Assembly: GCA_014730345.1 (NCBI GenBank)
Contig: WJIJ01000019.1
Span: 10,809-74,808 of the forward strand
Source: Candidatus Zixiibacteriota bacterium
GTDB taxonomy: Bacteria; Zixibacteria; MSB-5A5; UM-FILTER-46-8
Direction of reading: 5' to 3'
DNA length: 64,000 nt
Shown here: positions 37,627 to 64,000 of the stretch, one piece after another
Numbering within the stretch: the first letter of the stretch is position 1
How the letters are laid out: each line of letters opens with the position of its first letter
Position numbers and translations under genes: made by a program
The notes under the pieces: model-generated
Databases searched by the model: none
Told to the model about the DNA's origin: nothing
What the model saw: the letters and a program-made list of their open reading frames with translations, nothing else

Positions 37627-38616
37627 CTAATCTTTTGATTCTAAATCCTCTACGCATTCTGGGCAGAGGCAATAGGAGAAATCGGCTTCGGAATGTTCCT
37701 GAATATACTCTTCCAGATTACTCCATTCCCCCTGTTTATTGCGGATTTTCTTGCATGTGGAACATATAGGTATAAGCCCGCTCAATGCCCTTATCTTTGA
37801 TAGAGCTTCCTGGAGATGTTTGATTAATTTCTCACGCTGTTCTTCGATTAACTTTGTGGAAGTGGTGTCGTAAATTACCCATATCTGACCCAGTATACTG
37901 CCTTCTTCACCCCTGATCAACGACGCGTGGTAGTCGATCAGTGTATGGTCTCCATTCCGGGAAAGAAGAGTTGTGTTCGAGATCATGTGGGGTATATACC
38001 TTTCGGCGAAAGACTTCTGTGCTGGTATTTCGATTATTTTGCGCGAGACACTGTCGATTATTTTTAAAACATCCTTTAGTTTTTTTCCAAATGCTTCGGA
38101 TGCCTTCCAACCGGTCATGACCTCCGCGGTTTGATTAATAAAATTTATATTGCCGTCGGTATCGGTTACAATAACGCCATTACCGATATTGGACAATACA
38201 TTGACCAACCAGTCATTCCTCTGGGTTAGAGCTTTGCTTTTTTTGTGCTTTCTCAAGGATATTTCTATTGTAGTATAAAGCTCTTTGGTCTCGAAGGGCT
38301 TTACCAGGTAACCGTATGGTTCTGCATCCTTGGCTTTTTCCAATGTATCATCGTCAGCATAAGCGGTTAAAAATATTACCGGGATATCATTCTCCAGGTA
38401 TATTTTTTTCGCGGCATCGATACCATTCATCCGGTCATGCAGTCTTATATCCATCAGCACCAGGTCGGGTTTCAACAGCGCCGCCTGTTTGATCGCGTCC
38501 TCAGCCGTGCTGACTATGCCCATTATTTTATATCCGAGATCTTTCAATCGCTCTTCAATATTACGGGCTACTATGATTTCATCTTCGACTATAATTATGC
38601 TTGCGTTGCCTCCCAA
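37627..38616 (-). CDS. Response regulator: REC + PAS + conserved C-terminal Cys4 (IPICSTCKKIR...CLCPEC) module
   Basis: 329 aa. REC motifs (IIIVEDE..., LVLMDIRL, K). A PAS block (VIVTDTDGNINFINQTAEVMTGW). The C-terminal CxxC...CxC/CxxC looks like a zinc-ribbon output domain. No HTH is present. Confidence 0.8.
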   Translation of the reverse strand: MGGNASIIIVEDEIIVARNIEERLKDLGYKIMGIVSTAEDAIKQAALLKPDLVLMDIRLHDRMNGIDAAKKIYLENDIPVIFLTAYADDDTLEKAKDAEPYGYLVKPFETKELYTTIEISLRKHKKSKALTQRNDWLVNVLSNIGNGVIVTDTDGNINFINQTAEVMTGWKASEAFGKKLKDVLKIIDSVSRKIIEIPAQKSFAERYIPHMISNTTLLSRNGDHTLIDYHASLIRGEEGSILGQIWVIYDTTSTKLIEEQREKLIKHLQEALSKIRALSGLIPICSTCKKIRNKQGEWSNLEEYIQEHSEADFSYCLCPECVEDLESKD

Positions 38617-49992: not shown

Positions 49993-51335
49993 GACCGCCC
50001 TCCCTCTTTTTTCGCTTTTGTTTCAACGGGTCCATGTTGAATCTTCTCGTTTAAGAGGTAAATAAACAGGATAAACAGAAGAATATAGATAAATGTAAAC
50101 AGCGCCATTGAAAGCCACACATGTCCTTCGCCGATACTTACCGAAAGCGCGTCTTTTGTCCTCAACAGCCCATATACGATCCAGGGCTGCCTGCCGACTT
50201 CGGCTGAGAACCAGCCCAATTGATTGGCAATCTGGGGTAGAAGCACAGAGAATACAAATATCCACAGCAGTTTCCTGTTGGTGAATAATATTCCGGTGCG
50301 CCAACCGATTATGCCTATAACCGACAGCGCGATCAATAACATCCCGATGGATACCATTATATGATAACTCTGGAATACTAAATTTACGGGCGGTCGGTCT
50401 TCTTTGGAAAATGCCTGCAAACCGGTTACAGGTTCATCGGTGTCCCAATGAACAAGGAAGCTTAACAATCCCGGGATTTCCAAACCTGTAACGTCCTCAT
50501 TCTCCTCATCCACCCAACCGAAAAGATATGCGCCCGCCGGAGCTTCGGCGGGGTAATGTCCTTCGAAAGCGGCAAGTTTGGCAGGCTGGGTTTCAGCTAC
50601 TGTATCCGCGCTCCAATGGCCCGTGATAAGCTGGAAAACGGAGGAGAAGAGCGCGATAACGATGGCGATTTTCATTGATGCTTTCGCGAAATCGATGTGC
50701 TTCTTCCTCAATAGATAAAAGGCGCTTACGCTTAGAACAAAAAATGCGCCCGCTTGCCACGCGCCCATGTAAACGTGGCTTATCCGGTCAAGGAAGGAAG
50801 GATTGAAAACAACCTGCCAGAAATCGACGATTTCCGCCCGGACACCATTAGCCGTTTCTACGATATGATGACCCGCCGGGGTCTGTTGCCATGAGTTAGC
50901 CACTACTATCCATATCGCTGAGAAATGCGCCCCGAAAGCGACCATGATAGTTGCGAAAAAGTGGGTTCTCGGTTTTACCTTGTCCCAGCCGAACAGCAAA
51001 ATAGCCAGAAATCCCGATTCGAGGAAAAAGGCGAAAATTCCTTCAGCGGCAAGCGCGCTTCCGAAAACATCGCCGACGAAACGGGAGTAAGTCGCCCAGT
51101 TGGTGCCGAATTGGAATTCCATAACAATTCCGGACGCGACCCCCAGGGCGAAAATCAATCCGAAAATTTTAACCCAGAAGCGAGTCATTTGATGATACAA
51201 TTCGTTCTTGGTTTTTAAGTAAGTTCCTTCCATGATGACCAGGAACAGCCCTAATCCGATACTTAATGGAGGGAAGATGTAATGGAATCCAACCGTATAA
51301 CCGAATTGTATCCGGGAGAGAAGTTCGTAATCCAT
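49989..51335 (-). CDS. cydA: Cytochrome bd ubiquinol oxidase subunit I (short Q-loop type)
   Basis: 448 aa. N-terminal [27 protein letters not shown] and the heme-ligand regions are typical of CydA. Confidence 0.9.
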
Positions 51336-51583
51336 TTTACTATACCCCGTAACTGAAAATAGTATGTATTATTCAAAAGGTAACATGTGTAAGATTTACA
51401 TATTTTTGTCTTATTCGTCAAGAATTATTGTAGTAATTTATCAGGGTTTTAATTTTAAAGCCTTATGATTGATTACTAAAAAGTCAAGATTAGTTTAAAA
51501 ACTTTGAACAACAAGATTAAATCATGGTTTTATATAGGATATATTAATCTGTTGAACTCTGTAGAAAATTGGAAGGGAATACT

Positions 51584-54262
51584 ATGACTGATAAGGAAAA
51601 ACAGGAAATAAAAAAGGCGATAGAAGTTGAAGACCAGGAATGGTTGGAAGCTCTTGATTATATAGTCGATAAGGACGGGCCGGAACGCGCCCAGAGCCTT
51701 ATGGCCAAACTAATGGCCAGGGTGCAGATTTTCGGAATTCACTCCCTTTGTCCGGGTAATACGCCTTATATAAACACGATTTCTAAAGAGCATCAACCGG
51801 AGTTTCCCGGAAACCGTGAACTCGAAAGGCGGATTAAAAGCATCAACCGATGGAATGCCATGGCTATGGTGGTTCGCGCTAATCGGGTGGAAGACGGGAT
51901 CGGCGGACATATTTCTACTTACGCGTCTTCAGCTACCCTTTACGAGGTGGGATTCAATCACTTTTTCCGGGGAAGAGATAACAATAAGCCGGGGGATATA
52001 ATCTATTTCCAGGGTCACGCCGCTCCCGGTATTTACGCCCGCGCTTTTCTTGAAGGAAGGCTAAGTGAGAAGGACTTGGAAAACTTCCGCAGGGAATTAA
52101 ATCCAGATGGAGGATTGTCATCGTACCCGCATCCATGGCTGATGCCTGATTTCTGGGAGTTTCCCACGGTTTCCATGGGACTCGCTCCCATAATGGCGAT
52201 CTACCAGGCGCGTTTCAATCATTATCTTAATGACAGGGGGCTTCTGGATACCTCAGGTCAAAAGATTTGGGCATTCCTCGGCGACGGGGAAATGGATGAA
52301 CCGGAGTCTATGGGTGCGATAACATTACCGGCGAGAGAAAAGCTCGATAATTTGATTTTTGTCATTAACTGTAATTTACAGCGTCTTGACGGTCCCGTGC
52401 GCGGCAACGGTAAAATCATCCAGGAGTTGGAAGCCGCTTTCCGTGGAGCGGGATGGAACGTAATCAAGGTTATCTGGGGTGATGACTGGGATCCCCTTCT
52501 TGAGCGGGATAAGAACGGCCTTTTAGTCAAGCGAATGGGCGAGATAGTAGATGGACAATCCCAAAAATACGCCGTTTCCAAGGGCGATTTCATCCGTGAA
52601 GATTTCTTTGGCAAGTACCCGGAGTTAAAGGAAATTGTCAAGGATTACAGCGATGAGCAGTTGCGGACTCTCCGCCGCGGCGGTCATGATCCCGAAAAAG
52701 TATACGCGGCTTATAAAGCGGCAGTCGGGCACGAAGGCTCTCCCACCGTGATTCTCGCCCAGACAATTAAAGGCTACGGTCTCGGCGAAGCGGGAGAAGG
52801 GAAGAATATTACTCACCAGCAAAAGAAGCTGAATGAGGATGAGCTTAAGTCTTTCCGTAAAAGGTTTGATATTCCCATACCTGAAGATAAGGTTGCCCAA
52901 GCCCCGTTCTATCGTCCCGATGAAAACAGCGAGGAGATGAAATACCTGAAGGAAACCCGGAATAAACTCGGTGGCAGTATACCGCAAAGAAAATTAACTG
53001 TCAGGCCCATTGAAATGCCCCCGGAGGAATTATTCAAGGAATTTTACGAGGGCTCAGGCAACCTTGAAGTTTCGACAACCATGGCGTTTGTAAGCATTCT
53101 TTCGAAATTGCTGAAGGATAAGGGCATTGGTAAAAACGTAGTGCCTATCGTTCCCGATGAAGCACGCACCTTCGGAATGGAATCGTTATTCCGGCAGGTG
53201 GGGATTTATTCGCACTACGGCCAACTCTACGAACCGGTCGATAAAGAGAATCTGCTATATTACCGTGAAGATAAACAGGGCGCGATATTAGAAGAAGGAA
53301 TAACCGAGGCGGGTTCGATGTCCTCGTTCATAGCCGCCGGCACAGCCTATGCCACACACGGAATCAATATAATACCATTCTTCATTTATTATTCCATGTT
53401 TGGTTTTCAGCGGATAGGAGATTTAATATGGGCCGCCGGAGATATGCAGGCGAAGGGTTTCCTGCTCGGAGGAACTTCGGGGAGGACGACTCTTGCCGGG
53501 GAAGGGCTCCAGCACCAGGATGGCCAGAGCCACCTTTACGCGCTCTCGGTGCCCAACCTTCTTGCTTATGATCCAGCCTACGCCTACGAAATCGCGGTTA
53601 TAATCCAGGATGGTATCAAACGGATGTACGCGGATCAGGAGAATATTTTTTATTACCTTACCCTTGGCAACGAGCCCTACCAGATGCCGAAGATGACGGA
53701 TGGTTTAAAAGATGGGATACTCAAGGGTATATATAAGCTGAATAAGGGAGAAGGCTCCGGGAAAAATATGAAAGTTAATCTACTGGGAAGCGGCGCCATT
53801 CTAAATGAAACACTGAAAGCCCAGAAACTTCTCGCTGACAACTACGATGTTGATTCCGATGTTTGGAGCGTTACCGGTTACAAGCAACTTTACCGCGATG
53901 CCATCGAAACCGAGCGGTGGAACAGGCTCAATCCGCAAAAGGAGCCCAGGGTTCCATATATTAGGCAAGTATTGAACGGCAACGGCAATCTTTGTGTAGC
54001 CTCGACGGACTATGTTCATGTCCTGCCGCTTACGATATCCAAATGGCTGCCGAACAGGATTGCCACGCTGGGCACCGACGGTTATGGCCGGAGCGACGGG
54101 CGCAAACAACTCCGCGATTTCTTTGAAGTAGATCATCGTTATATAGCCTTGACAACCCTTCTTGAGTTAGTCAAGGAAGATAAACTTGACAGGACCGTTA
54201 TTGATAAAGCTATGAAAGAGTTGGAGATTAATCCGGAGAAGCTGAATCCGCTTGTTGATTGA
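51584..54262 (+). CDS. aceE: Pyruvate dehydrogenase E1 component, homodimeric type
   Basis: About 892 aa from the ATG at 51584; the track ORF begins at an upstream TTG. GGHISTYASSATLYEVGFNHFFRG and ThDP-binding GDGEMDEPES...N motifs match AceE. No E2/E3 genes are adjacent. Confidence 0.88.
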   Translation: MTDKEKQEIKKAIEVEDQEWLEALDYIVDKDGPERAQSLMAKLMARVQIFGIHSLCPGNTPYINTISKEHQPEFPGNRELERRIKSINRWNAMAMVVRANRVEDGIGGHISTYASSATLYEVGFNHFFRGRDNNKPGDIIYFQGHAAPGIYARAFLEGRLSEKDLENFRRELNPDGGLSSYPHPWLMPDFWEFPTVSMGLAPIMAIYQARFNHYLNDRGLLDTSGQKIWAFLGDGEMDEPESMGAITLPAREKLDNLIFVINCNLQRLDGPVRGNGKIIQELEAAFRGAGWNVIKVIWGDDWDPLLERDKNGLLVKRMGEIVDGQSQKYAVSKGDFIREDFFGKYPELKEIVKDYSDEQLRTLRRGGHDPEKVYAAYKAAVGHEGSPTVILAQTIKGYGLGEAGEGKNITHQQKKLNEDELKSFRKRFDIPIPEDKVAQAPFYRPDENSEEMKYLKETRNKLGGSIPQRKLTVRPIEMPPEELFKEFYEGSGNLEVSTTMAFVSILSKLLKDKGIGKNVVPIVPDEARTFGMESLFRQVGIYSHYGQLYEPVDKENLLYYREDKQGAILEEGITEAGSMSSFIAAGTAYATHGINIIPFFIYYSMFGFQRIGDLIWAAGDMQAKGFLLGGTSGRTTLAGEGLQHQDGQSHLYALSVPNLLAYDPAYAYEIAVIIQDGIKRMYADQENIFYYLTLGNEPYQMPKMTDGLKDGILKGIYKLNKGEGSGKNMKVNLLGSGAILNETLKAQKLLADNYDVDSDVWSVTGYKQLYRDAIETERWNRLNPQKEPRVPYIRQVLNGNGNLCVASTDYVHVLPLTISKWLPNRIATLGTDGYGRSDGRKQLRDFFEVDHRYIALTTLLELVKEDKLDRTVIDKAMKELEINPEKLNPLVD

Positions 54263-54282
54263 TACTTGCGATTACTTATAAT

Positions 54283-54305
54283 CGGCCGGATTTATCACCC
54301 GGCCG
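54283..54305 (+). terminator. Possible terminator hairpin after aceE
   Basis: CGGCCGG-atttatcac-CCGGCCG, a 7-bp GC stem. The downstream T-tract (CTTTACG) is weak. Confidence 0.35.
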
Positions 54306-54380
54306 CTTTACGCTGAGGTAGAATCTGGTTCGAAGAATAATGGAAGCAAAATGTAATATCTTAAAAAAACGGTAAAAGGA

Positions 54381-54409
54381 CTTGACATGTTTTAAGTAAT
54401 GATTTATAA
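54381..54409 (+). promoter_or_regulatory. Consensus sigma70-type promoter (TTGACA-17 nt-TATAAT) upstream of the tetR-led operon
   Basis: Exact TTGACA at 54381-54386 and exact TATAAT at 54404-54409, with a 17-nt spacer. It sits 70 nt upstream of the TetR start codon. Confidence 0.6.
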
Positions 54410-54410
54410 T

Positions 54411-54424
54411 GACCGACCAGTCGG
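54411..54424 (+). promoter_or_regulatory. Perfect palindrome ACCGACcaGTCGGT, candidate TetR operator overlapping the predicted transcription start
   Basis: A 6-2-6 inverted repeat that begins 2 nt after the -10 hexamer. This is the classic repressor-operator geometry for an autoregulated TetR. Confidence 0.5.
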
Positions 54425-54478
54425 TTATATAAGGCGATCATAGCAGGATTTAGGATTAAAATATTAAGAGAAATAAAT

Positions 54479-55087
54479 ATGTCACCTCGCATAGTTAACA
54501 AGCAGGCTAAAAAGGAAGCGATTATACAGAAAGCAACGGAAGTTATCTCCGCAAAGGGGATTTACAGTTTTAAAATGAGCGATGTCGCCGATGCCGCTGA
54601 TGTGGGCAAGGGAACCCTTTATGAATATTTCAAAGACAAGGAGGAGTTGGTTACGGCTTGCTATGTCTACTTTTTGGATTCCTTTATTGATATTGCTGAT
54701 AGCGTTGATTTGAAAAATTCGGCGAGAGCCAATTTGAGGTCTTACATTTCAGTTCTATTCAAACATTTCTCGAAAAATATCGATAGCGTGCACATAGCGT
54801 TTGATTTCTGGTCGCAAGCGCTTCAATCAAGTGATAACAGGCAGTATGTTAAATTAATGACCAAGGCATACAACGATTTCGTAGCAGTGCTTATCCGAAT
54901 TATAAAAGACGGAATCAAGAAGGGTGAATTCCGCGCGATAGATGTGGAAAAATACGCCGCCGCGATAGTAGGCATGCTTGATGGAATTCTATTCCAGGGC
55001 GTTATGGGGATTAATGATATAACTGATGCAAAATGGCCGAGAGTAATTAGCAACATGATTTTGAATGGTCTCAGCAAAACCGGGTGA
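54479..55087 (+). CDS. TetR/AcrR-family transcriptional regulator
   Basis: 202 aa. N-terminal HTH with KGTLYEYFKDKEEL, then an all-helical ligand-binding domain. Confidence 0.8.
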   Translation: MSPRIVNKQAKKEAIIQKATEVISAKGIYSFKMSDVADAADVGKGTLYEYFKDKEELVTACYVYFLDSFIDIADSVDLKNSARANLRSYISVLFKHFSKNIDSVHIAFDFWSQALQSSDNRQYVKLMTKAYNDFVAVLIRIIKDGIKKGEFRAIDVEKYAAAIVGMLDGILFQGVMGINDITDAKWPRVISNMILNGLSKTG

Positions 55088-55094
55088 TAGATAA

Positions 55095-55877
55095 GTGAAC
55101 AGGAGGAGCAGATTGAAGAAGAATATTGTCATAGCTGTAATATTTATATCTCTAATCATAGGGAAAGGCTATAGTTACGCCGAGGACGCGAAAGAGATAG
55201 TGGACAAAGCCGACAAGCATTTTCGGGGTAATACAAGTTATAGCGAGATGAGTATGAAGATAGCGCGTCCAGACTGGAGCCGTGAACTCGGAATGAAAAG
55301 TTGGTCTAAGGGACGAGAGCTGTCATTGATTATTATAACCGAACCAGCCAGAGATAAAGGAACCGCTTTTTTGAAAAGGGGAAATGAAGTATGGAACTGG
55401 GTGCCGCGGGTTGAGAAAGTTATTAAGATTCCTCCTTCGATGATGCAACAGTCATGGATGGGCAGTGATTTCACTAATGACGACCTTGTGAAGGAATCAT
55501 CGATTGTTGAAGATTATTCCCATGAAATAGTCGGCGATTCGGTTATACAGGGGCGGGAATGTTATAAAATTAAAATGACTCCTAAGCCGGAAGCGCCCGT
55601 AGTTTGGGATAAGGTTTTGTTGTGGGTAAGTAAAAAGCACTACCTGCAAATGCGTGGTGAGTACTACAATGAGGATGGTGAACTTGAAAATACCATGATA
55701 ATGACCGATGTAAAAACCCTCGGAGGAAGGCTCATTCCGGCGATCATGACCATGATCCCCGCCGATGAACCGGGGAATAAAACGGTTATAACTATCCATG
55801 AAATGCAGTTCAATCAACCGATCAATGATTCCTTTTTCTCCGAGCGTAATATGAAAAAGATGAGTAGCAGGATTTAG
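55095..55877 (+). CDS. LolA-like outer-membrane lipoprotein-sorting family protein (periplasmic; alternative TTG start at 55113 preceded by AGGAGG)
   Basis: About 255 aa. Signal peptide. Blocks MSMKIARPDWSRELGMKSW, GTAFLKRGNEVWNWVP, KIPPSMMQQSWMGSDFTNDDL are as I recall for the LolA-like family that travels with FtsX/MacB-type ABC exporters. Confidence 0.5.
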   Translation: MNRRSRLKKNIVIAVIFISLIIGKGYSYAEDAKEIVDKADKHFRGNTSYSEMSMKIARPDWSRELGMKSWSKGRELSLIIITEPARDKGTAFLKRGNEVWNWVPRVEKVIKIPPSMMQQSWMGSDFTNDDLVKESSIVEDYSHEIVGDSVIQGRECYKIKMTPKPEAPVVWDKVLLWVSKKHYLQMRGEYYNEDGELENTMIMTDVKTLGGRLIPAIMTMIPADEPGNKTVITIHEMQFNQPINDSFFSERNMKKMSSRI

Positions 55878-55888
55878 CGGTCAGTATT

Positions 55889-57112
55889 ATGAATATGTAC
55901 TTAAGATTAGCATGGCGGAACATCTGGCGAAATAAAAGGCGGAGCATAATATCGATCGCGTCGGTGTTGCTGGCGGTATTAATTGCGCTTTTTATGCGTT
56001 CTATGCAGAAGGGAACCTACGCCCGGGCTATTGATAACGTTGTGTCATTTTATACCGGATATATCCAGATTCATAATCCGGGTTACTGGGATAAAAAATC
56101 ACTTAATAAAACATTCGCGGTTCAGGAATCGTTAATAGAAAACGTTTCCTCGACAGAGTATGTAACCCATGTAACTCCCCGCCTTGAAGGTTATGGATTA
56201 ATATCGGGCGGCGAACGTACTGACGTCGGATTGGTGATAGGCATTAATCCCGAAGTTGAAAACGATATGACCGGTTTAGAAGGCAAACTTATAGAAGGCG
56301 AATATCTTCAACAGGGAGATATGGGAATTATGCTCGCCAAGGGATTAAGCGACCATCTCGACCTCGGGATTGGCGACACGGTGGTGATACTCGGGCAGGG
56401 TTACCATGATATTATGGCCGCCGGTAAGTATGAGATTCAAGGTTTGATTGAATTTCCTATAAAGCAATTAAACAATACTATGTCATACCTTACGCTTGAA
56501 GAAGCCCAGTATCTATTTGGAGCGTACAACAGATTAACATCGCTCTCAATAATGATCGAAGGGGAGGATAAACTCGATGAAGTGATGAATAATCTCGGTA
56601 AAAAATACAGCGAAGACTACGAGATTATGAGCTGGAAGGAAATGAGTCCGGAACTGGAGCAGGGGATAGAAGCAGATAACGCTTCCGGCTTGATTATGTT
56701 GTTTATACTTTACATGGTGGTAGGTTTCGGGATATTAGGAACAATATTGATGATGACCATGGAGCGCACCAGGGAATTCGGGGTTTTGATCGCGGTAGGA
56801 ATGAAGCGCGGTTACCTGAGGCTGATAACATTAATAGAGAGCATCTTCCTGTCTTTTGTGGGAGTAGTGCTGGGAACTATTCTCTCGGTGCCGATTCTCG
56901 CATATTTCCGAAGCAATCCCATTTATTTCACCGGGGAGCTTGCCAAATCGATGACCGAGTTCGGTTACGAACCGATACTGGCGTTTACCCTCGCGCCAGG
57001 TATATTTCTATGGCAGGCGGTCGTTGTTTTTATAATAGCTTTCATAGCGGCATTATATCCATTATGGAAAATTACCCGGTTGGATGCTGTCGACGCGATG
57101 AGGTCGGTATGA
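55889..57112 (+). CDS. ABC transporter permease, FtsX/MacB/LolCE family
   Basis: 407 aa. N-terminal LAWRNIWRNKRRS and TM1, a large periplasmic domain, and three C-terminal TMs. This is the MacB/LolC topology. Confidence 0.75.
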   Translation: MNMYLRLAWRNIWRNKRRSIISIASVLLAVLIALFMRSMQKGTYARAIDNVVSFYTGYIQIHNPGYWDKKSLNKTFAVQESLIENVSSTEYVTHVTPRLEGYGLISGGERTDVGLVIGINPEVENDMTGLEGKLIEGEYLQQGDMGIMLAKGLSDHLDLGIGDTVVILGQGYHDIMAAGKYEIQGLIEFPIKQLNNTMSYLTLEEAQYLFGAYNRLTSLSIMIEGEDKLDEVMNNLGKKYSEDYEIMSWKEMSPELEQGIEADNASGLIMLFILYMVVGFGILGTILMMTMERTREFGVLIAVGMKRGYLRLITLIESIFLSFVGVVLGTILSVPILAYFRSNPIYFTGELAKSMTEFGYEPILAFTLAPGIFLWQAVVVFIIAFIAALYPLWKITRLDAVDAMRSV

Positions 57113-57140
57113 TTATGAATTATAACAGGGGAATGATAAT

Positions 57141-58355
57141 ATGATTTGGTCGATTGCCTGGCGTAATGTCTGGAGGAATAAAAAGCGGTCAGCGATTATA
57201 CTAACCGCAGTTGCTTTTGGTATTTGGGCTGGATTGATGAGCAACGCTATTATGCTGGGAGCGTCAAGGCAGATGGTTAAATCAGCGATAGAAACCAGGA
57301 CCTCGCATATACAGGTCCACCGTGAAGGATTCCGTGACCACCACGAAATTGATTTGATGATTCAGGAACCGGATAGCGTGACAAGTGTAATTAAATCCAT
57401 TGAAGGCGTTAAGGCGATTTCGGTCAGGTCAGTTTTAACCGGGATGTGCCGTTCGCCGGAGTCCGGTACCGGGGTTACTTTATTCGGAATCAAGCCCGAG
57501 GATGAAGCGCGGGTTTCGGCAATAGAAGATAAACTTGTTGACGGTTCATTCTTCAAGGATGAATATCGCAACCCGATTATTGTTGGCGATGACCTTGCTA
57601 AAAAACTCGATGTCGGCGTAGGAAATAAAATAGTAGTTAACGCGCAGGACCTCGAAGGTTCGATCGCGGGGGGCGCTTTTCGTGTGGTTGGCATCTTTAA
57701 TACAGTCTCTTCTGAATTCGACAAATCGAATGTGTTCGCTCTCAGGAATGATATTGACGAGATTTATGAACTTGGCGGTGGAGTCCATGAGATAGCTGTT
57801 ATCCTGAATAGCAACGACATGTTGAAGACGGTTGATGAAAAACTGAAAAATAGTTTATCAAATCTCGATGTGGCGACGTGGGAAGAGATTGAACCGCAGA
57901 TGTCGATCTTAACCGGCACCCAAAAGCAGATGTCATACATTTTCATAGGGATAATTCTACTTGCTCTTGTCTTCGGTATCACTAATACGATGTTGATGGG
58001 CGTGCTGGAACGAATAAGAGAGCTTGGCGTCGTACTTTCGCTGGGCATGAACCATTTCCGGATATTCTACATGATTCTCCTCGAAACGATATTCCTGTCG
58101 ATTATAGGCGCGGGAGGAGGGATGCTGGCGACCGTAGGTACCATCGCTGTCGCGGGGAAAACCGGTATCGATCTATCTATAGTCTCAGCCGGCCTTGAGG
58201 CTTTCGGGATGAGTACCATGCTTTATCCCTATCTGCCCGCGGGGGAATATCCTGTAGTCGCTCTGATGGTCGTAGTTACCGCGGTTGTAGCGTCAATATA
58301 TCCGGGCATAAAAGCAATCAGACTCAACCCGGTGGAAGCGATTAGAACTTATTAA
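57141..58355 (+). CDS. ABC transporter permease, FtsX/MacB/LolCE family (second copy)
   Basis: 404 aa. IAWRNVWRNKKRS N-terminus and the same topology as the preceding gene. Confidence 0.75.
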   Translation: MIWSIAWRNVWRNKKRSAIILTAVAFGIWAGLMSNAIMLGASRQMVKSAIETRTSHIQVHREGFRDHHEIDLMIQEPDSVTSVIKSIEGVKAISVRSVLTGMCRSPESGTGVTLFGIKPEDEARVSAIEDKLVDGSFFKDEYRNPIIVGDDLAKKLDVGVGNKIVVNAQDLEGSIAGGAFRVVGIFNTVSSEFDKSNVFALRNDIDEIYELGGGVHEIAVILNSNDMLKTVDEKLKNSLSNLDVATWEEIEPQMSILTGTQKQMSYIFIGIILLALVFGITNTMLMGVLERIRELGVVLSLGMNHFRIFYMILLETIFLSIIGAGGGMLATVGTIAVAGKTGIDLSIVSAGLEAFGMSTMLYPYLPAGEYPVVALMVVVTAVVASIYPGIKAIRLNPVEAIRTY

Positions 58356-58372
58356 TTATAAAGGAGCTTGTC

Positions 58373-59068
58373 GTGGCGGTAATAATGAGTGAAAAGATAT
58401 GTAAAACGTACAACGACGGCGGCGTGCCGGTGAAAGCGTTGAAGGATGTCGATATGGAAATAGAGGATGGTGAATTTACCGCTATCGTTGGTCCATCAGG
58501 TTCAGGTAAAACTACATTGCTGAATGTGATTGGAGGTTTAGATACTCTGACCTCAGGGAAACTACGGGTAGGGGATAAGGAAATCTCGGAGATGACCCCT
58601 AACGACCTTATTGAATTCAGGTTGAACAATATCGGATTCGTTTTCCAGGCCTATAATCTTATCCCGGTGCTGACCGCTATAGAAAACGTTGAGTTCATAA
58701 TGTTACTTCAAAAAGTATCAAAAGAGGAAAGGCGCGGGAGGGCGCGGGAATTGCTTAAATCGGTTGGATTGGAAGATATGATTAACAGAAAACCGATAGA
58801 GCTTTCCGGGGGACAGCAACAGAGGGTAGCCGTCGCCCGCGCGCTGGCATCCCGCCCCCGTTTCGTGCTAGCTGATGAACCGACCGCCAACCTCGATACC
58901 GCGTCCGCCGAAAACCTGCTCGATATCATGGAGCGCATGAACGATGAACACAAGATGACCTTCATTTTTTCCACCCATGACCAGCGGGTGGTCAGGCGCG
59001 CCCGCCGGGTTATCACTTTAAAAGACGGGCAGGTCGATACCGATGAACGCAAGGGGGAAAATGGGTGA
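58373..59068 (+). CDS. ABC transporter ATP-binding protein (LolD/MacB-ATPase-like)
   Basis: 231 aa. Walker A GPSGSGKTT, signature LSGGQQQRVAVARAL, Walker B FVLADEPT, H-loop. GTG start with AAGGAG RBS. Confidence 0.9.
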   Translation: MAVIMSEKICKTYNDGGVPVKALKDVDMEIEDGEFTAIVGPSGSGKTTLLNVIGGLDTLTSGKLRVGDKEISEMTPNDLIEFRLNNIGFVFQAYNLIPVLTAIENVEFIMLLQKVSKEERRGRARELLKSVGLEDMINRKPIELSGGQQQRVAVARALASRPRFVLADEPTANLDTASAENLLDIMERMNDEHKMTFIFSTHDQRVVRRARRVITLKDGQVDTDERKGENG

Positions 59069-60228
59069 TACGTTTACTCCTCTCCATTTTAATATCAGTA
59101 TTCGCCGCCTTACCTGTCTATGCTCAATGGGGAGACCCCTACAGCTTCGGCGGGTATCTAAGGATTACGCCCATGGTCTGGAAACCGGCTTCCTATTTCA
59201 CCAGCGATGAGAATTACGAGGTAATGAATATCATTCTCACCCGGCAGAATTTCAGATGGTACCCTACAACTAACTTCACATTCGGTTTAGAGCTTAAAAG
59301 CAGGATTTACCAGGGCGGTTCAATTTACCTGCTAAAACAAACCGCCAATGTTTCATCGTTGGGCGCGTCATATTTCGATTGGGATAAAAACTGGCTCGAA
59401 GAAGATGAAGTATTAATCAACAGTACCATCGACAGGGCATGGCTGAAAGTATATTTCGGTGATTTACAGATAGACCTCGGACGGCAGAGGATTGCCTGGG
59501 GAACGAATCTCGTATGGAACCCTGTTGACCTTTTCAATCCCTCCAACCCGATGGATTTTACCAATGACGAGATGCCTGGTACCGATGCCGTTCGCGCGCA
59601 ATACTACCTCGGTCCCAACTCTAAGATTGAAACCGCTGTTGCTCCTCAAAAAGAAGAGGATGAAACGATCGCCGCCGGTTTACTCCAGATTAATTTGTGG
59701 GATTATGATTGGATATTTCTTGGAGGAAGGCGTTATCAGGAAACCGTATTCGGATTCGCCTGGGCCGGCAGTATTCTTGACGGCGGTTTCCGCGGGGAGT
59801 TTTTGTATTCCAAACCGCGGAGATACCTGAATGATTCCGGTGGTTATCTCGTCGCCAGTGTCTCCGGCGACTACACAATGAAAAACTCCCAGTATTTTCA
59901 CGGGGCTTTGCTCTACAACGAGAGGGGTACAACCGATGATGCCGGCGGATTCCGTCAACTGCTGGCATATATGCGTGGCGAATTGACTCCTGCGCGCATT
60001 TCATTATGGGGAGAGATAGCACGTGATTTGACACCGCTGTTACGGGGAGATATCGCTATGATATTCAACCCCTATGATAACTCGTGGTACCTGAGCCCCA
60101 ATTTTACCTACTCTTTGATTACCGATCTGGATGTTACCGCGATGGCTTTGATTTTCGGCGGTGATGATGGCACCGAGTTCGGCGACACCGGCAATATCTA
60201 CATGATGCGCTTCAAGTACTCATTTTAA
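59065..60228 (+). CDS. Putative outer-membrane beta-barrel protein, last gene of the TetR/ABC operon
   Basis: 387 aa. GTG start overlapping the upstream stop (GTGA). Signal peptide ...ALPVYAQ. Alternating amphipathic beta-strand pattern and a C-terminal ...RFKYSF ending in Phe. Confidence 0.35.
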   Translation: MIRLLLSILISVFAALPVYAQWGDPYSFGGYLRITPMVWKPASYFTSDENYEVMNIILTRQNFRWYPTTNFTFGLELKSRIYQGGSIYLLKQTANVSSLGASYFDWDKNWLEEDEVLINSTIDRAWLKVYFGDLQIDLGRQRIAWGTNLVWNPVDLFNPSNPMDFTNDEMPGTDAVRAQYYLGPNSKIETAVAPQKEEDETIAAGLLQINLWDYDWIFLGGRRYQETVFGFAWAGSILDGGFRGEFLYSKPRRYLNDSGGYLVASVSGDYTMKNSQYFHGALLYNERGTTDDAGGFRQLLAYMRGELTPARISLWGEIARDLTPLLRGDIAMIFNPYDNSWYLSPNFTYSLITDLDVTAMALIFGGDDGTEFGDTGNIYMMRFKYSF

Positions 60229-60482
60229 TCTCGTCGAGTTTTCGCTTTTTTCCTATGTAAATATAGAAATAATTTCTCTTGACAGATTCTATAATCCGGG
60301 TTATGGTTGTTTAGCCAAAAGGTGGGGGCTGGAACCATGAAAAACGTGAAAGCCAAAATTCAGCTAATATCCTGTATTCGGGGGGGGAGTTTTTCAATTC
60401 TTGAGCGCCGCCTCCTTTTTACCCTGTAATATGTATTATCTTACTATTTGACAATTAATTAACCATATTCGATGGAGGCGCT

Positions 60483-60935
60483 ATGCGCTGTAAGACTATA
60501 TTAATAGTAATCTTTGGTTTAATGATATTTAATTTAATATCATTTGGATCTGCCTTGGCGCAACCCCAATCTCAGATGGAGGTTTTTGCATCAACCGATT
60601 ATTCATTGCCTGTAGAAAGCGAAGAGTTTACTTCCGCCGCACGATATGCCACTATAACTCTTGATTTTGATCGTACCGATAAAATCGCTATCCCTGGAAC
60701 ATATGACACTGAAATAAAGCCATACAATTACGACTGTAATTCATGGAGCGAAATGGTTTTTGCTTCGAACTGGGCTACAAACGGCGAATACCACATAGCC
60801 TATCCTACGGAAGATTGTGGGAGTGCCGGTGATCAAACCATGGGAATTGATATTACTATTAGTAGTGAAAAAGGGCATTTTGTTAATATGGAGCCTGGAT
60901 TCACTTATTCAAGTTCAATGCCGGAAAAAGAGTAA
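60483..60935 (+). CDS. Hypothetical small secreted protein
   Basis: 150 aa. Signal peptide MRCKTILIVIFGLMIFNLISFGSALAQ. RBS GGAGG. No recognisable domain. Confidence 0.35.
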   Translation: MRCKTILIVIFGLMIFNLISFGSALAQPQSQMEVFASTDYSLPVESEEFTSAARYATITLDFDRTDKIAIPGTYDTEIKPYNYDCNSWSEMVFASNWATNGEYHIAYPTEDCGSAGDQTMGIDITISSEKGHFVNMEPGFTYSSSMPEKE

Positions 60936-60946
60936 CCTATATCCAA

Positions 60947-60973
60947 TTGCCCTCCGGGTTTCCCGGAGGGCAA
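60947..60973 (+). other. Strong intergenic hairpin TTGCCCTCCGGG-ttt-CCCGGAGGGCAA (12-bp perfect stem)
   Basis: Perfect inverted repeat 12 nt after the stop of the 60483 gene and 20 nt before the BNR gene start. There is no U-tract on either strand. Confidence 0.45.
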
Positions 60974-60992
60974 ACTTTAGAAGGTAAGAATA

Positions 60993-63260
60993 ATGTTATT
61001 AATACGAACAATTACATTTTCCTTTATAATTCTTTTATCGGGAATTGCGTCGGCCGGTGAAAATGTTTGGACATCCAATGGTCCCTATGGGGCATCATCG
61101 AAAGCGATCGCCTTTCATCCTGAATATCCACAGGTAGTATTCACCGGGACGATATCTATGTCCGTTTTTAAAACGATAAATGGCGGTAGAGATTGGGAGA
61201 GAATTAGCGATGATTCTTTAAATAGTTCAGTTTGGGATTTAGAAATCCATCCCGTTGCTCCCGATACAATGTATCTTTGCGGGACAAGGGGTATCTATAA
61301 AAGTGTTAACGGGGGATATGATTGGTTTGGAATTAGAACTGATAATGTGTACAATACTATAGCGCTCCACCCGATTCAACCAAGCATACTTTTCGCAGGA
61401 GGCCCCTATTCATATATTTCAAAAGACGGAGGAAATACATGGAACAGGTTGATGGAGGAGAACGTTTTAATTAAAGATATCGAAGTGAGCCCCCATAGTT
61501 CAAATACAATTTTCGCGGTAACCAGTAAATTTTATTTGGGTAAAGGAGTTTTTAGAAGCGATGACAGCGGGGACACGTGGCGTAATATCCACAACAACTT
61601 AGACTACAGCCACTCGCCAGGTTACTCAATCGATTTCGATCCGCATGATTCGCTTACTATCTATATTTCCCGTTTATCCCTCCCCTATGAGGGTGAGTGG
61701 ATTGGTCTGAATAAAACTACTGACGGAGGGGAAACCTGGATGGATATAACTCCTTCTGGTCTCACCGAACCATGGATTCGCGATGTGGAGGTCCACCCCC
61801 TTATTGAAAACATGGTTTTTGCCGCGACAAGCCATGACGGTGTATGGATGAGTTCTAACGGCGGAAGCAATTGGGAAATCAGAAATGAACCATCTGCAGG
61901 GTCGCCAAGCACACTTGAGTTTAGTGGTAGCGGCTTGGATTTGTTGCTGGGAAAATATCATTCCGGGATTTTTAAGACTACCGATAACGGAAGAACTTGG
62001 GTTTCCTCAAGTAATGGTTTGAGCGAAGGCCCGATAAGTAGTATGATATTTCATCCCCATGAAGATGATAAGCTTTATGCCTTAGGTGGGGCCGGATTGT
62101 TTTCCAGTAATAATGGTGGCTCGAATTGGAGTCGAGTTGAAATAGGAATTGAGGTGAGTCATCTTTTTAAGCCAGGTGTTATCCTGTCGGATACTATCGG
62201 TAGCGGTAGAATCTTTTTGTGTCTTAACGCCTGTGGTTTGAATGGATGGTATAAAGATGGTTTGTTTCTTTACAGCGAGAACTGGGGAGAGAGTTGGACG
62301 GAGTATAACCTTGGTTTGCCGGATTCGATATTCTACACCTGTATGGATATAGCCTACTGCCCGGGCAATCAATACAAAATCTACCTCACAGCAGCCGACT
62401 CCGGAGTATATTATTGCGATGATTTGGTCAGCGGTTGGCATAAATGCGACGATGGCCTTCCGCAAGCGCCTAATTTCGGATGGTACAAGATAAGGGTTAA
62501 TCCGGGAAATCCGGATGATATATATGTTAGTTCCGGATTCGGCGATGTATTCCGTTCGATAGATGGAGCGCAGAGCTGGCAATTTGTTACGGAGATGCCG
62601 GATATGGTTACCGAGATCGCTTTTAACCCTATCAATCCATTGACTCAGTATATATCTTCCTGCGCCGGTTTATATAAGACTACCGATAATGGCGAAACCT
62701 GGGTAAACCTCTCCGAGGATTGGATCGAAAAAGAAGTTTACGGAATTGTTTTCAACCCCCGAAATCCCTCCGAATTGATCATCTCCTCATTTGCGCATCG
62801 CGTCGCCAAAAGTACGGATGGCGGCGATACGTGGCATACGATGAATGATGGTTTATTATATAGAAGTTATTTCGTTCCGAGAAATATATTCGTGTCACCC
62901 CACGAAGATGAAAAGTATTACCTGACTTCTGACATGGGAATCTGGGAATATAATAGAGTGCAAACCCCTGTTGACGATAGTTATATTGATTCAATTCAAG
63001 ATCCACTAATACTGACCAGCTTCCCCAATCCATCTAACAACCAAATATTAATAGAGTACCGAATAGAAACGGGCGGTGATGTGAAACTTGAGGTATTCAA
63101 TGTAAAAGGGCAACTTATTACTAAATTAGTCGAGGAGAAACAAACGCCGGGTACGTATACAGTGAGTTGGGACGGCATTGGTTTTTCATCCGGAGTTTAT
63201 TTCGCTAAACTGAAAACAGGGGAGAGGACTTATACGCGTAAAATGGTGATGACTAAATAA
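60993..63260 (+). CDS. BNR/Asp-box repeat (beta-propeller) protein with T9SS type-A C-terminal sorting domain
   Basis: 755 aa. Signal peptide. At least 10 S-x-D-x-G-x-T-W type repeats (SKDGGNTW, SDDSGDTW, TTDGGETW, SSNGGSNW, TTDNGRTW, STDGGDTW ...). C-terminus FPNPSNNQILIEYRIETGGDVKLEVFNVKGQLI...GVYFAKL...RKMVMTK. Confidence 0.75.
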   Translation: MLLIRTITFSFIILLSGIASAGENVWTSNGPYGASSKAIAFHPEYPQVVFTGTISMSVFKTINGGRDWERISDDSLNSSVWDLEIHPVAPDTMYLCGTRGIYKSVNGGYDWFGIRTDNVYNTIALHPIQPSILFAGGPYSYISKDGGNTWNRLMEENVLIKDIEVSPHSSNTIFAVTSKFYLGKGVFRSDDSGDTWRNIHNNLDYSHSPGYSIDFDPHDSLTIYISRLSLPYEGEWIGLNKTTDGGETWMDITPSGLTEPWIRDVEVHPLIENMVFAATSHDGVWMSSNGGSNWEIRNEPSAGSPSTLEFSGSGLDLLLGKYHSGIFKTTDNGRTWVSSSNGLSEGPISSMIFHPHEDDKLYALGGAGLFSSNNGGSNWSRVEIGIEVSHLFKPGVILSDTIGSGRIFLCLNACGLNGWYKDGLFLYSENWGESWTEYNLGLPDSIFYTCMDIAYCPGNQYKIYLTAADSGVYYCDDLVSGWHKCDDGLPQAPNFGWYKIRVNPGNPDDIYVSSGFGDVFRSIDGAQSWQFVTEMPDMVTEIAFNPINPLTQYISSCAGLYKTTDNGETWVNLSEDWIEKEVYGIVFNPRNPSELIISSFAHRVAKSTDGGDTWHTMNDGLLYRSYFVPRNIFVSPHEDEKYYLTSDMGIWEYNRVQTPVDDSYIDSIQDPLILTSFPNPSNNQILIEYRIETGGDVKLEVFNVKGQLITKLVEEKQTPGTYTVSWDGIGFSSGVYFAKLKTGERTYTRKMVMTK

Positions 63261-63271
63261 GGATTTGGATA

Positions 63272-64000
63272 TCAATTATCTAAATGCGCGAATTTGCCCT
63301 CCAGGTCCACCTTGCTGGTAAGATACGTTTTCAATTCCTCGAGGTACTTGTCGCGGGCTTCCAGATGGGTAACCTTCGTTTCCAATAATTCCCGCTTGGA
63401 TATCTGCCCGTCGCTAAAACGCCCCTCAGCTATTCTTACCCTCTGGTAGGCGAGTTCTATCTGCTGGCGCATTATATCCAGCCGTCGATAACTGACATCG
63501 AGATTATTAAGCAGGTCAACGATTTCCGCCCGCGCCTGCTGTTTGGCCCGGTTGTATTCTAATTTCGCCTGCTCCGCCTGGATGCGCGCCGCTTTCAACG
63601 CCGCCGAGGATGAACCGCCGTCCCAAATAGGATATGAAAGATTCAACGAGATTCCCCATCCGCGGGTGTTGATATCCTCCACCACGCCGTCGGTTTTAAC
63701 TTCGCCCTGACCGGTGGAGTAGTCGGCGGTCAAATCGCCGGTGAGGCCATGCCCGGATGCCTGGTAATCCGCCTGGCGTTTGGCGCGTTTGTATTCCAGG
63801 TCCGCCTTCTTTATCGGCAATGATTCGTTCCACGAGTTGGAGTACGCGCCTTTTTGTTGTTCGGTGAGATGTTCTTCTACCGTCGGTTCTATCAAATGCA
63901 GTTCTTCATCGACATCCCGGTCCAGCAGTATCGCCAGCGCGCGTTTCTTCTCGCTTAAATCAGTTTGAATGTCGAACAGGCTCAACTCGGCGTCCAATCT
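63272..64000 (-). CDS. TolC-family outer-membrane efflux protein, C-terminal part (gene continues beyond the window end)
   Basis: Coiled-coil heptad-rich sequence typical of TolC/OprM (LEYNRAKQQARAEIVDLLNNLDVSYRRLDIMRQQIELAYQRVRIAEGRFSDGQISKRELLE). The ORF is open to the window edge. Convergent with the BNR gene with an 11-nt gap. Confidence 0.7.
   Translation of the reverse strand, partial: RLDAELSLFDIQTDLSEKKRALAILLDRDVDEELHLIEPTVEEHLTEQQKGAYSNSWNESLPIKKADLEYKRAKRQADYQASGHGLTGDLTADYSTGQGEVKTDGVVEDINTRGWGISLNLSYPIWDGGSSSAALKAARIQAEQAKLEYNRAKQQARAEIVDLLNNLDVSYRRLDIMRQQIELAYQRVRIAEGRFSDGQISKRELLETKVTHLEARDKYLEELKTYLTSKVDLEGKFAHLDN

Follow-up and report, generated by a model that had tools for sequence, protein, structure and literature searches.

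Promoter and palindrome upstream of the TetR gene

The 64,000-nucleotide stretch of DNA analysed here (the window), from a Zixibacteria genome assembled from a metagenome, includes an operon of six genes that begins with a TetR-family repressor gene (54479-55087, + strand) and continues with genes for a LolA-like periplasmic carrier, two LolC/E-like permeases, a LolD-like ATPase and a predicted porin-like beta-barrel. The preceding gene, for pyruvate dehydrogenase E1, ends at 54262, which leaves a gap of 216 nt (54263-54478) before the TetR gene. Within this gap is a consensus promoter followed by an 18-bp palindrome (54410-54427), which is very probably the operator of the TetR protein encoded downstream, judging from its conservation and its association with TetR genes in other species.

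The promoter consists of a -35 hexamer TTGACA (54382-54387), recognized by sequence reading and by a promoter scan, a 17-nt spacer (54388-54404) and a -10 hexamer TATAAT (54405-54410), all on the + strand, and matches the sigma-70 type (TTGACA and TATAAT, 16-18 nt apart) at 12 of 12 positions. An exact TTGACA-N16-18-TATAAT occurs only once on both strands of the 64 kb (0.04 expected; 4 of 100 shuffled sequences contained one match), and the same promoter is the sole 12/12 match in a scan of positions 50000-64000. The preliminary description of this DNA was right to call the promoter exact and rare, but wrong to call the genome AT-poor: the G+C content of the window is 39-52% (mean ~46%; 42% around the site), and the match is rare even so.

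A single base (G54411) separates the -10 hexamer from the palindrome core ACCGACcaGTCGGT (54412-54425; ACCGAC-ca-GTCGGT, 6-2-6, from sequence reading), much as first described, although promoter and palindrome had been assigned to an interval (54381-54424) displaced by one base at each end, and the distance to the TetR ATG at 54479, given as 55 nt, is 53 nt from the core. The 6-2-6 palindrome is real, but the predicted functional unit is 18 bp rather than 14: the palindrome would be the core of a 9 + 9 operator, TGACCGACCAGTCGGTTA (54410-54427, strand not assigned; halves TGACCGACC and AGTCGGTTA), that begins at the last T of the -10 hexamer, T54410 being common to both. The core is perfect and 7 of the 9 arm positions of the 18-bp unit are complementary; a repeat finder extended the palindrome to 9-nt arms (ATGACCGAC/GTCGGTTAT), complementary at 8 of 9 positions. 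Further copies of the exact palindrome had been thought worth seeking, and there is only this one in the 64-kb window. The 18-bp operator ends 51 nt before the TetR ATG, upstream of which there is no in-frame start codon. From the usual geometry of sigma-70 promoters, transcription would be expected to start at 54417-54418 (+ strand), about 7 nt past the -10 hexamer, i.e. within the left arm of the operator. The site is thus of the size (~15-20 bp) and in the location (the regulator's own promoter region) of the palindromic operator of a TetR module; it shares the last base of the exact consensus -10 hexamer, and a like arrangement is conserved among relatives.

Conservation of the palindrome and its association with TetR genes

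The window TetR protein has no close relatives (the best are 36-39% identical), and a word-indexed search for homologues yielded no more than 5 proteins and a single useful locus. Further loci were gathered via the conserved LolA-like neighbour and by an exhaustive TetR search with alignment. The LolA-derived set, chosen blind to the DNA motif, comprises 80 loci of species-representative genomes from Bacteroidota, Balneolales, Ignavibacteria, Calditrichota, Krumholzibacteria and two Vibrionaceae. A TetR gene lies immediately upstream on the same strand in 63 of the 80, and most loci possess an 18-20-bp palindrome, TTGACyGAmCGkTCrGTCAA (18-mer TGACyGAmCGkTCrGTCA), 13-32 nt before the TetR start. 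At locus L001, where the TetR protein is 36% identical to that of the window, the TetR gene is preceded by TTGACA...TATAA-TGACCGAACGGTCGGTCA, with the palindrome again right after TATAAT.

A weight matrix was built from 52 sites of 52 other species, with the window excluded. Matches above 10 bits numbered 59 within 160 nt upstream of TetR starts versus 5 in the remaining 519 kb, and 3 of these 5 sit at the promoter of an operon whose first gene is an additional, methyltransferase-like one. This extra gene (~222 aa, with a class I S-adenosylmethionine motif) precedes the TetR and LolA-like genes in L005, L008 and L009, where the operator is found further upstream, before the extra gene (1340, 1494 and 272, respectively); its presence suggests a modified cargo in some lineages. 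The window site TGACCGACCAGTCGGTTA scores 16.8 bits and is the best match in the 64 kb.

AT-rich intergenic DNA often contains short palindromes and promoter-like hexamers, and a second matrix match of 14 bits (TGACCAACCAGTCATTCC, 38202-38219) occurs in the window inside an open reading frame (ORF), as might be expected if promoter-like match and palindrome were neighbours by chance and without function. However, a score of 16.8 bits was reached anywhere in only 3 of 200 simulated 64-kb windows, and here it falls within the 216-nt gap before a TetR gene; with the conservation counts (59 vs 5 above; 60/74 and 49/59 vs 0/17 below) excluding chance, such a coincidence has a negligible likelihood. 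The match TGACCAACCAGTCATTCC (in ORF 37627-38616, - strand) and a core with one mismatch, ATCGACGAGTCGGT (37543-37556, in ORF 34993-37608, + strand), were set aside as probably fortuitous because both are inside ORFs.

A second set of loci was picked by TetR protein only. An alignment of the TetR subfamily, in which the recognition helix GKGT(L/I)YEYF is invariant, was scanned against metagenome contigs to give 80 loci, 74 of them non-redundant and with enough upstream sequence to be counted. With at most one mismatch, ACCGACNNGTCGGT is located no more than 200 nt upstream of the TetR gene in 60 of these 74 metagenomic loci (27 exact), and its density is ~130-fold higher upstream of TetR genes (67 matches in 14.4 kb) than elsewhere (10 in 280 kb). 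At the centre, CG is found in 24 sites, TG in 21 and CA in 12; since TG and CA represent one site on opposite strands, the CA centre of the window is a common variant (33 sites with either). Several loci (L086, L113, L118, L136 and L140) match the 14-mer of the window exactly. Two operators spaced ~75 nt apart precede the TetR gene in several Bacteroidales-type loci (L012, L047, L054 and L081), an arrangement that may permit cooperative control or control of two promoters; the window has a single operator, and no second one was found in its 54263-54478 gap.

Promoter elements are conserved in register with the operator. Among 52 operator-aligned loci, TTG occupies positions -29 to -27 from the operator (83%, 69% and 58%) and TAnnTT positions -6 to -1, abutting the operator (T 83%, A 87%, last T 92%), the two elements being 17 nt apart across phyla. 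Zixibacteria, Calditrichota and many metagenomic loci have TTGACA-17-TATAAT or TATATT, and Bacteroidota have TAnnTTTG, completed by the TG of the operator and in agreement with the Bacteroidetes -7 element. Promoter matches of at least 9/12 end 2-12 nt (mostly 2-8) before the core in 37 metagenomic loci.

This architecture bears on whether the consensus promoter might be inactive despite a real operator, with transcription starting elsewhere and the TetR protein acting as a roadblock or on a different promoter. Promoter matches are matches to a consensus only (35 were counted in 50000-64000, versus 27 +/- 5 expected), and Zixibacteria belong to the Fibrobacterota-Chlorobiota-Bacteroidota (FCB) group, in which Bacteroidota have a promoter consensus of their own. 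A weaker TTGATT-16-TATAAT is also present at 54255-54282, upstream of a hairpin described below. Such an inactive promoter is nevertheless unlikely, given the uniqueness of the 12/12 match in the window, the fixed position of TTG and TAnnTT relative to the operator in ~50 species, the TTGACA/TATAAT-type promoters just before the core in the 37 metagenomic loci, and the near-consensus TTGACA promoter that TetR-less relatives keep before the LolA-like gene.

To assess the co-occurrence of site and regulator, loci whose sequence extends 1 kb or more upstream of the LolA-like gene were scored for a site of 15 bits or higher. Of 59 such loci that have a TetR gene, 49 contain the site; the 17 that lack a TetR gene all lack the site too (Fisher p = 2e-10). 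The transporter operons closest to that of the window (L163, L167 and L168, with LolA-like proteins 65-70% identical) have neither a TetR gene nor an operator, L163 and L168 retain a near-consensus TTGACA promoter, and L165 has a TetR gene together with a perfect site. Because the closest operons are without both and the promoter is kept in L163 and L168, TetR gene and operator seem to form a cassette that was gained or lost as a unit before one operon type. This pattern, with the operator retained at a matching position in loci that have the regulator and missing from those that do not, is that of a TetR module.

The sites also vary with the recognition helix of the adjacent TetR protein. GKGT.YEY helices, the type of the window, accompany 58 sites with the preferred half-site TGACCGACC (C5 85%, G6 100%, C8 84%), and SKGL.YNY helices, mostly in the LolA-derived genomes, accompany 39 sites with the preferred half-site TGACTGAAC (T5 58%, A8 59%, C9 94%). 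The half-sites of the window, TGACCGACC and TAACCGACT, agree with their own helix class at 16-17 of 18 positions.

These two associations count against the idea that another regulator, for example a FadR/PaaR/PfmR-type TetR paralogue encoded elsewhere, binds the palindrome while the adjacent TetR protein acts on another target. One operator core does serve distinct TetR proteins (PaaR, PfmR and SbtR), Thermus sites can be common to two TetRs (PMC7022988), and subfamily TetRs with the same operator head other operons, which makes cross-talk conceivable. Yet the site strictly accompanies the TetR gene in cis, the closest TetR-less operons are also without it, and variation in the operator goes with the recognition helix of the TetR protein beside it, so that binding by a foreign regulator in place of the adjacent one is improbable.

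The palindrome might alternatively work as RNA, a hairpin in the 5' untranslated region that affects stability, attenuation or translation, instead of as a DNA operator. The RNA of 54410-54430 would form a 7-bp hairpin (-7.2 kcal/mol, z = -2.95), and symmetrical base changes among homologues would keep pairing too. However, the left arm is probably untranscribed because the start is expected ~7 nt after the -10 hexamer, no U-tract follows the hairpin, the sequence itself is conserved beyond pairing (TGAC...GTCA is nearly invariant), the asymmetry of many sites would disrupt base pairs, and the links to the TetR gene and its recognition helix have no RNA-level explanation; a role as RNA is very unlikely. 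Co-occurrence and helix covariation therefore argue against an unrelated factor, an RNA element or chance. The proposal of the preliminary description, that the palindrome is the operator of the adjacent TetR protein, is supported by the matrix rank, the upstream conservation, the co-occurrence and the covariation, which all agree.

Genes of the operon and its surroundings

A terminator-like hairpin, GGCCGG-N9-CCGGCC (54284-54305, + strand), begins 22 nt past the stop codon of the pyruvate dehydrogenase E1 gene (aceE). The fold of 54270-54320 has a free energy of -16.1 kcal/mol (z = -2.6), and the hairpin was not listed by a terminator scan because its T-run is weak. It probably insulates the TetR promoter from read-through from aceE.

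The first gene of the operon encodes a FadR-like TetR protein of 202 aa with the recognition helix DVGKGTLYEYF and the domains of a TetR module (Pfam TetR_N, E = 2.7e-14; TetR_C_6, E = 7.7e-9); an identical protein is annotated in a metagenome-assembled genome of candidate division Zixibacteria. This gene is followed by genes for a LolA-like (TP_0789-like, PF17131) periplasmic carrier of hydrophobic cargo (55095-55877; Pfam LolA_like, E = 1.9e-60), which has more than 7800 homologues at 50-70% identity, two LolC/E-like permeases with MacB_PCD and FtsX domains (55889-57112 and 57141-58355), a LolD-like ATP-binding cassette ATPase (58373-59068; Pfam ABC_tran) and a predicted outer-membrane porin-like beta-barrel of 387 aa with a signal peptide and a C-terminal Phe (59065-60228), all on the + strand. 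The LolA-like ORF from GTG 55095 is 260 aa long; because homologues are ~250 aa and the public annotation of the identical protein (P0006) gives 209 aa, the deposited start is probably too far downstream. The six genes are co-directional with gaps of -4 to +28 nt, and their order recurs in the distant genome of L001, in keeping with the earlier statement that the TetR gene heads a six-gene operon; the label "export operon" is reasonable but unproven.

No Pfam family was found in the sixth-gene protein, which is 29% identical to the sixth-gene product of L001 and has 585 homologues, every one annotated as hypothetical. Its confident AlphaFold model (pLDDT, the predicted local distance difference test, 88.9) has MOMP, OccD/OprD and AlgE as top Foldseek matches, a predicted fold that resembles 16-18-stranded porins. 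A dedicated barrel family tied to LolA-like/LolCDE-like operons appears to be undescribed. Scores against the families of the canonical Lol system fall below their cut-offs (lolCE 115 and 110 vs 362 bits; NCBIfam LolD 233 vs 308; LolA1_Flavo 28 vs 100), and by these scores the transporter is of Lol-like architecture and not a canonical Lol system.

Past the operon there is a second strong promoter-like site, TTGACA-17-TATGGT (60279-60307), after which come an ORF of 150 aa that belongs to no family and a BNR/sortilin-repeat protein of 755 aa (60483-63260 region) that carries a type IX secretion C-terminal sorting domain.

Relation to known systems and proposed regulation

The closest solved relatives of the window TetR protein are FadR of B. 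subtilis and B. halodurans (1vi0, 3whb, 5gp9 and 5gpc; E = 1e-13 to 2e-10), and its best NCBIfam match is FadR (NF053878), at 69.1 bits versus an equivalog cut-off of 200, by which it is related to FadR but not a member. ATGAATGAAT-ACTCATTCAT is the operator of B. halodurans FadR, which occupies it as a dimer of dimers and dissociates in response to long-chain acyl-CoA (PMC5397183). The FadR operator and the window have a common TGAnnGA half-site frame (agreement at 6 of 10 positions for the left half of the window and at 7 of 10 for the FCB consensus), FadR (YsiA) autoregulates its own promoter, and the G and Y of the helix motif GT(I/L)Y are conserved in the window TetR protein. The half-sites differ, however, in being GC-rich in the window (CCGAC versus ATGAA of FadR), the window site has no more than the TGAnnGA frame in common with the FadR box ATGAATGAnTAnTCATTCAT, and FadR controls beta-oxidation genes whereas the window operon encodes a transporter.

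PaaR of Burkholderia cenocepacia, also of TetR type, has operators that contain ACCGACCGGTCGGT, and mutation of the repeat abolishes the negative control attributed to PaaR; the 6-2-6 core is that of the window except for the centre (CG versus CA), and the operator is within the core promoter (PMC2770484). The window has ACCGACCAGTCGGT, a core of PaaR type, and 24 related sites have the CG centre. The PaaR repeat lies between the -35 and -10 hexamers, whereas that of the window begins at the end of the -10 hexamer, and PaaR controls phenylacetate catabolism; no paa genes are present in the window operon or its flanks. Membership in FadR, PaaR or the canonical Lol system was rejected, since family cut-offs are missed and the regulated genes differ. 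Thermus thermophilus PfmR (TTHB023) binds TACCGACCGNTNGGTN / CTGACCGATCGGTCAG and SbtR (TTHA0167) binds TGACYrnnyRGTCA; both have TGACCG...CGGTCA arms in common with the window, are autoregulating and are tied to fatty-acid and phenylacetate metabolism (PMC7022988). The Thermus palindromes are 14-16 bp long versus 18 bp in the window, and the regulated genes differ; the related locus L059 has the short form of the palindrome.

TetR with tetO and QacR with IR1 are textbook autoregulated efflux modules, in which a palindromic operator lies over the promoter or start and a ligand induces release. Like them, the window has a repressor gene beside a transporter, with a palindromic predicted operator that would overlap the promoter or start; the TetR and QacR modules are divergent, whereas the window repressor is the first gene of the operon it would regulate. 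A comparison with QacR is drawn in PMC2770484. The periodicity GACnGAC...GTCnGTC within the window operator is reminiscent of the overlapping repeats to which FadR and QacR bind as two dimers, and at a guess the operator might be bound by two dimers as well.

A literature search (LolA-like with FtsX and TetR; PF17131; TP0789) for a characterised operon of TetR, LolA-like, LolCDE-like and barrel genes found architectural analogues only. Borrelia BBJ23-29 is a computationally described cluster of LolA-like, MacB/LolCDE-like and outer-membrane barrel genes (PMC13078400), and the TetR/MMPL/LolA-like operons of P. gingivalis (PG1175-81) and Prevotella are iron-responsive and strongly regulated (PMC10434189). 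These Bacteroidota operons include a TetR gene, as does that of the window. The analogues differ in having an Omp85-type barrel, or MMPL instead of an FtsX-type transporter, and in induction by iron limitation, and an operator is not described for any of them.

Since the first base of the operator is the last of the -10 hexamer and the predicted start falls within it, a bound TetR protein (one dimer, possibly two) would occlude the -10/+1 region and block RNA polymerase, as the geometry and the TetR/QacR paradigm suggest. Repression would keep the whole six-gene operon off, the TetR gene included, until a small hydrophobic effector released the repressor, whereupon an apparent envelope-spanning exporter for lipid-like cargo would be switched on. 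The best candidate for the effector is a fatty acyl-CoA or a related lipid, at roughly even odds, because FadR proteins are the closest solved relatives and because of the neighbourhoods of paralogues: subfamily TetRs with the ACCGAC..GTCGGT operator head other operons (L109, L152, L114, L121, L137, L124, L157 and L134) that encode ACAD9/VLCAD-like (very-long-chain-type) acyl-CoA dehydrogenases, MMPL transporters and a TolC/HlyD pair. An operator shared across such operons hints at a lipid-related regulon family.

Several observations weigh against regulation of the operon through this site as proposed. The window site departs from the family consensus at two positions (centre G to A, and GTTA instead of GTCA in the right arm), and scores 16.8 bits versus 25-30 for most of the 52 sites from which the matrix was built. 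Its centre is at -60 from the start codon versus -13 to -32 in most relatives, and its core is 1 nt from the -10 hexamer, tighter than in any relative (2-12 nt). Ten of the 59 TetR-bearing loci have no site at the threshold; in three of them (L005, L008 and L009) it lies further upstream, before the extra first gene, L053, L055 and L062 have a TACCGAACGGTCGGT variant instead of such a site, and at L003, L004, L006 and L007 (56-73% G+C, including Krumholzibacteria) a TetR gene precedes the LolA-like gene with no recognisable copy of the operator. The divergent TetR proteins of these last four loci probably use a different operator, because they score low against the subfamily profile. As for the effector, its assignment is drawn only from distant homology (FadR, 69 versus 200 bits) and the gene neighbourhoods of paralogues.

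Though well supported by the DNA and its homologues, the switch is of an ordinary kind: an autoregulatory TetR operator of the known FadR/PaaR/PfmR motif class over a consensus promoter. The promoter-operator pair itself is a textbook arrangement, and its value is practical. What it adds is a defined 18-bp operator, and the class consensus TGACCGACyrGTCGGTCA for TetRs with GKGT.YEY helices, of a TetR family that heads thousands of uncharacterised TetR/LolA-like/LolCDE-like operons in Zixibacteria, Calditrichota, Ignavibacteria, Balneolales and Bacteroidota; cultured carriers of the operon include Mariniphaga anaerophila DSM 26910 (L081) and Gracilimonas halophila (L017). Knowledge of the operator makes the regulon predictable in any such genome, and an in vitro screen for the inducer would be the fastest way to learn the cargo of the transporter. 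The compact pairing of consensus promoter and adjoining operator could also find use as a portable repressible module. More tentatively, TetR and operator may be the sensor of an uncharacterised envelope pathway very widespread in the FCB superphylum, in which LolCDE-like extractor, LolA-like carrier and porin-like barrel export or remodel lipid or lipid-anchored cargo on an acyl-CoA or lipid signal. If so, MMPL transporters and very-long-chain acyl-CoA dehydrogenases would also belong to a lipid-homeostasis regulon that spans phyla and is defined by the conserved operator.

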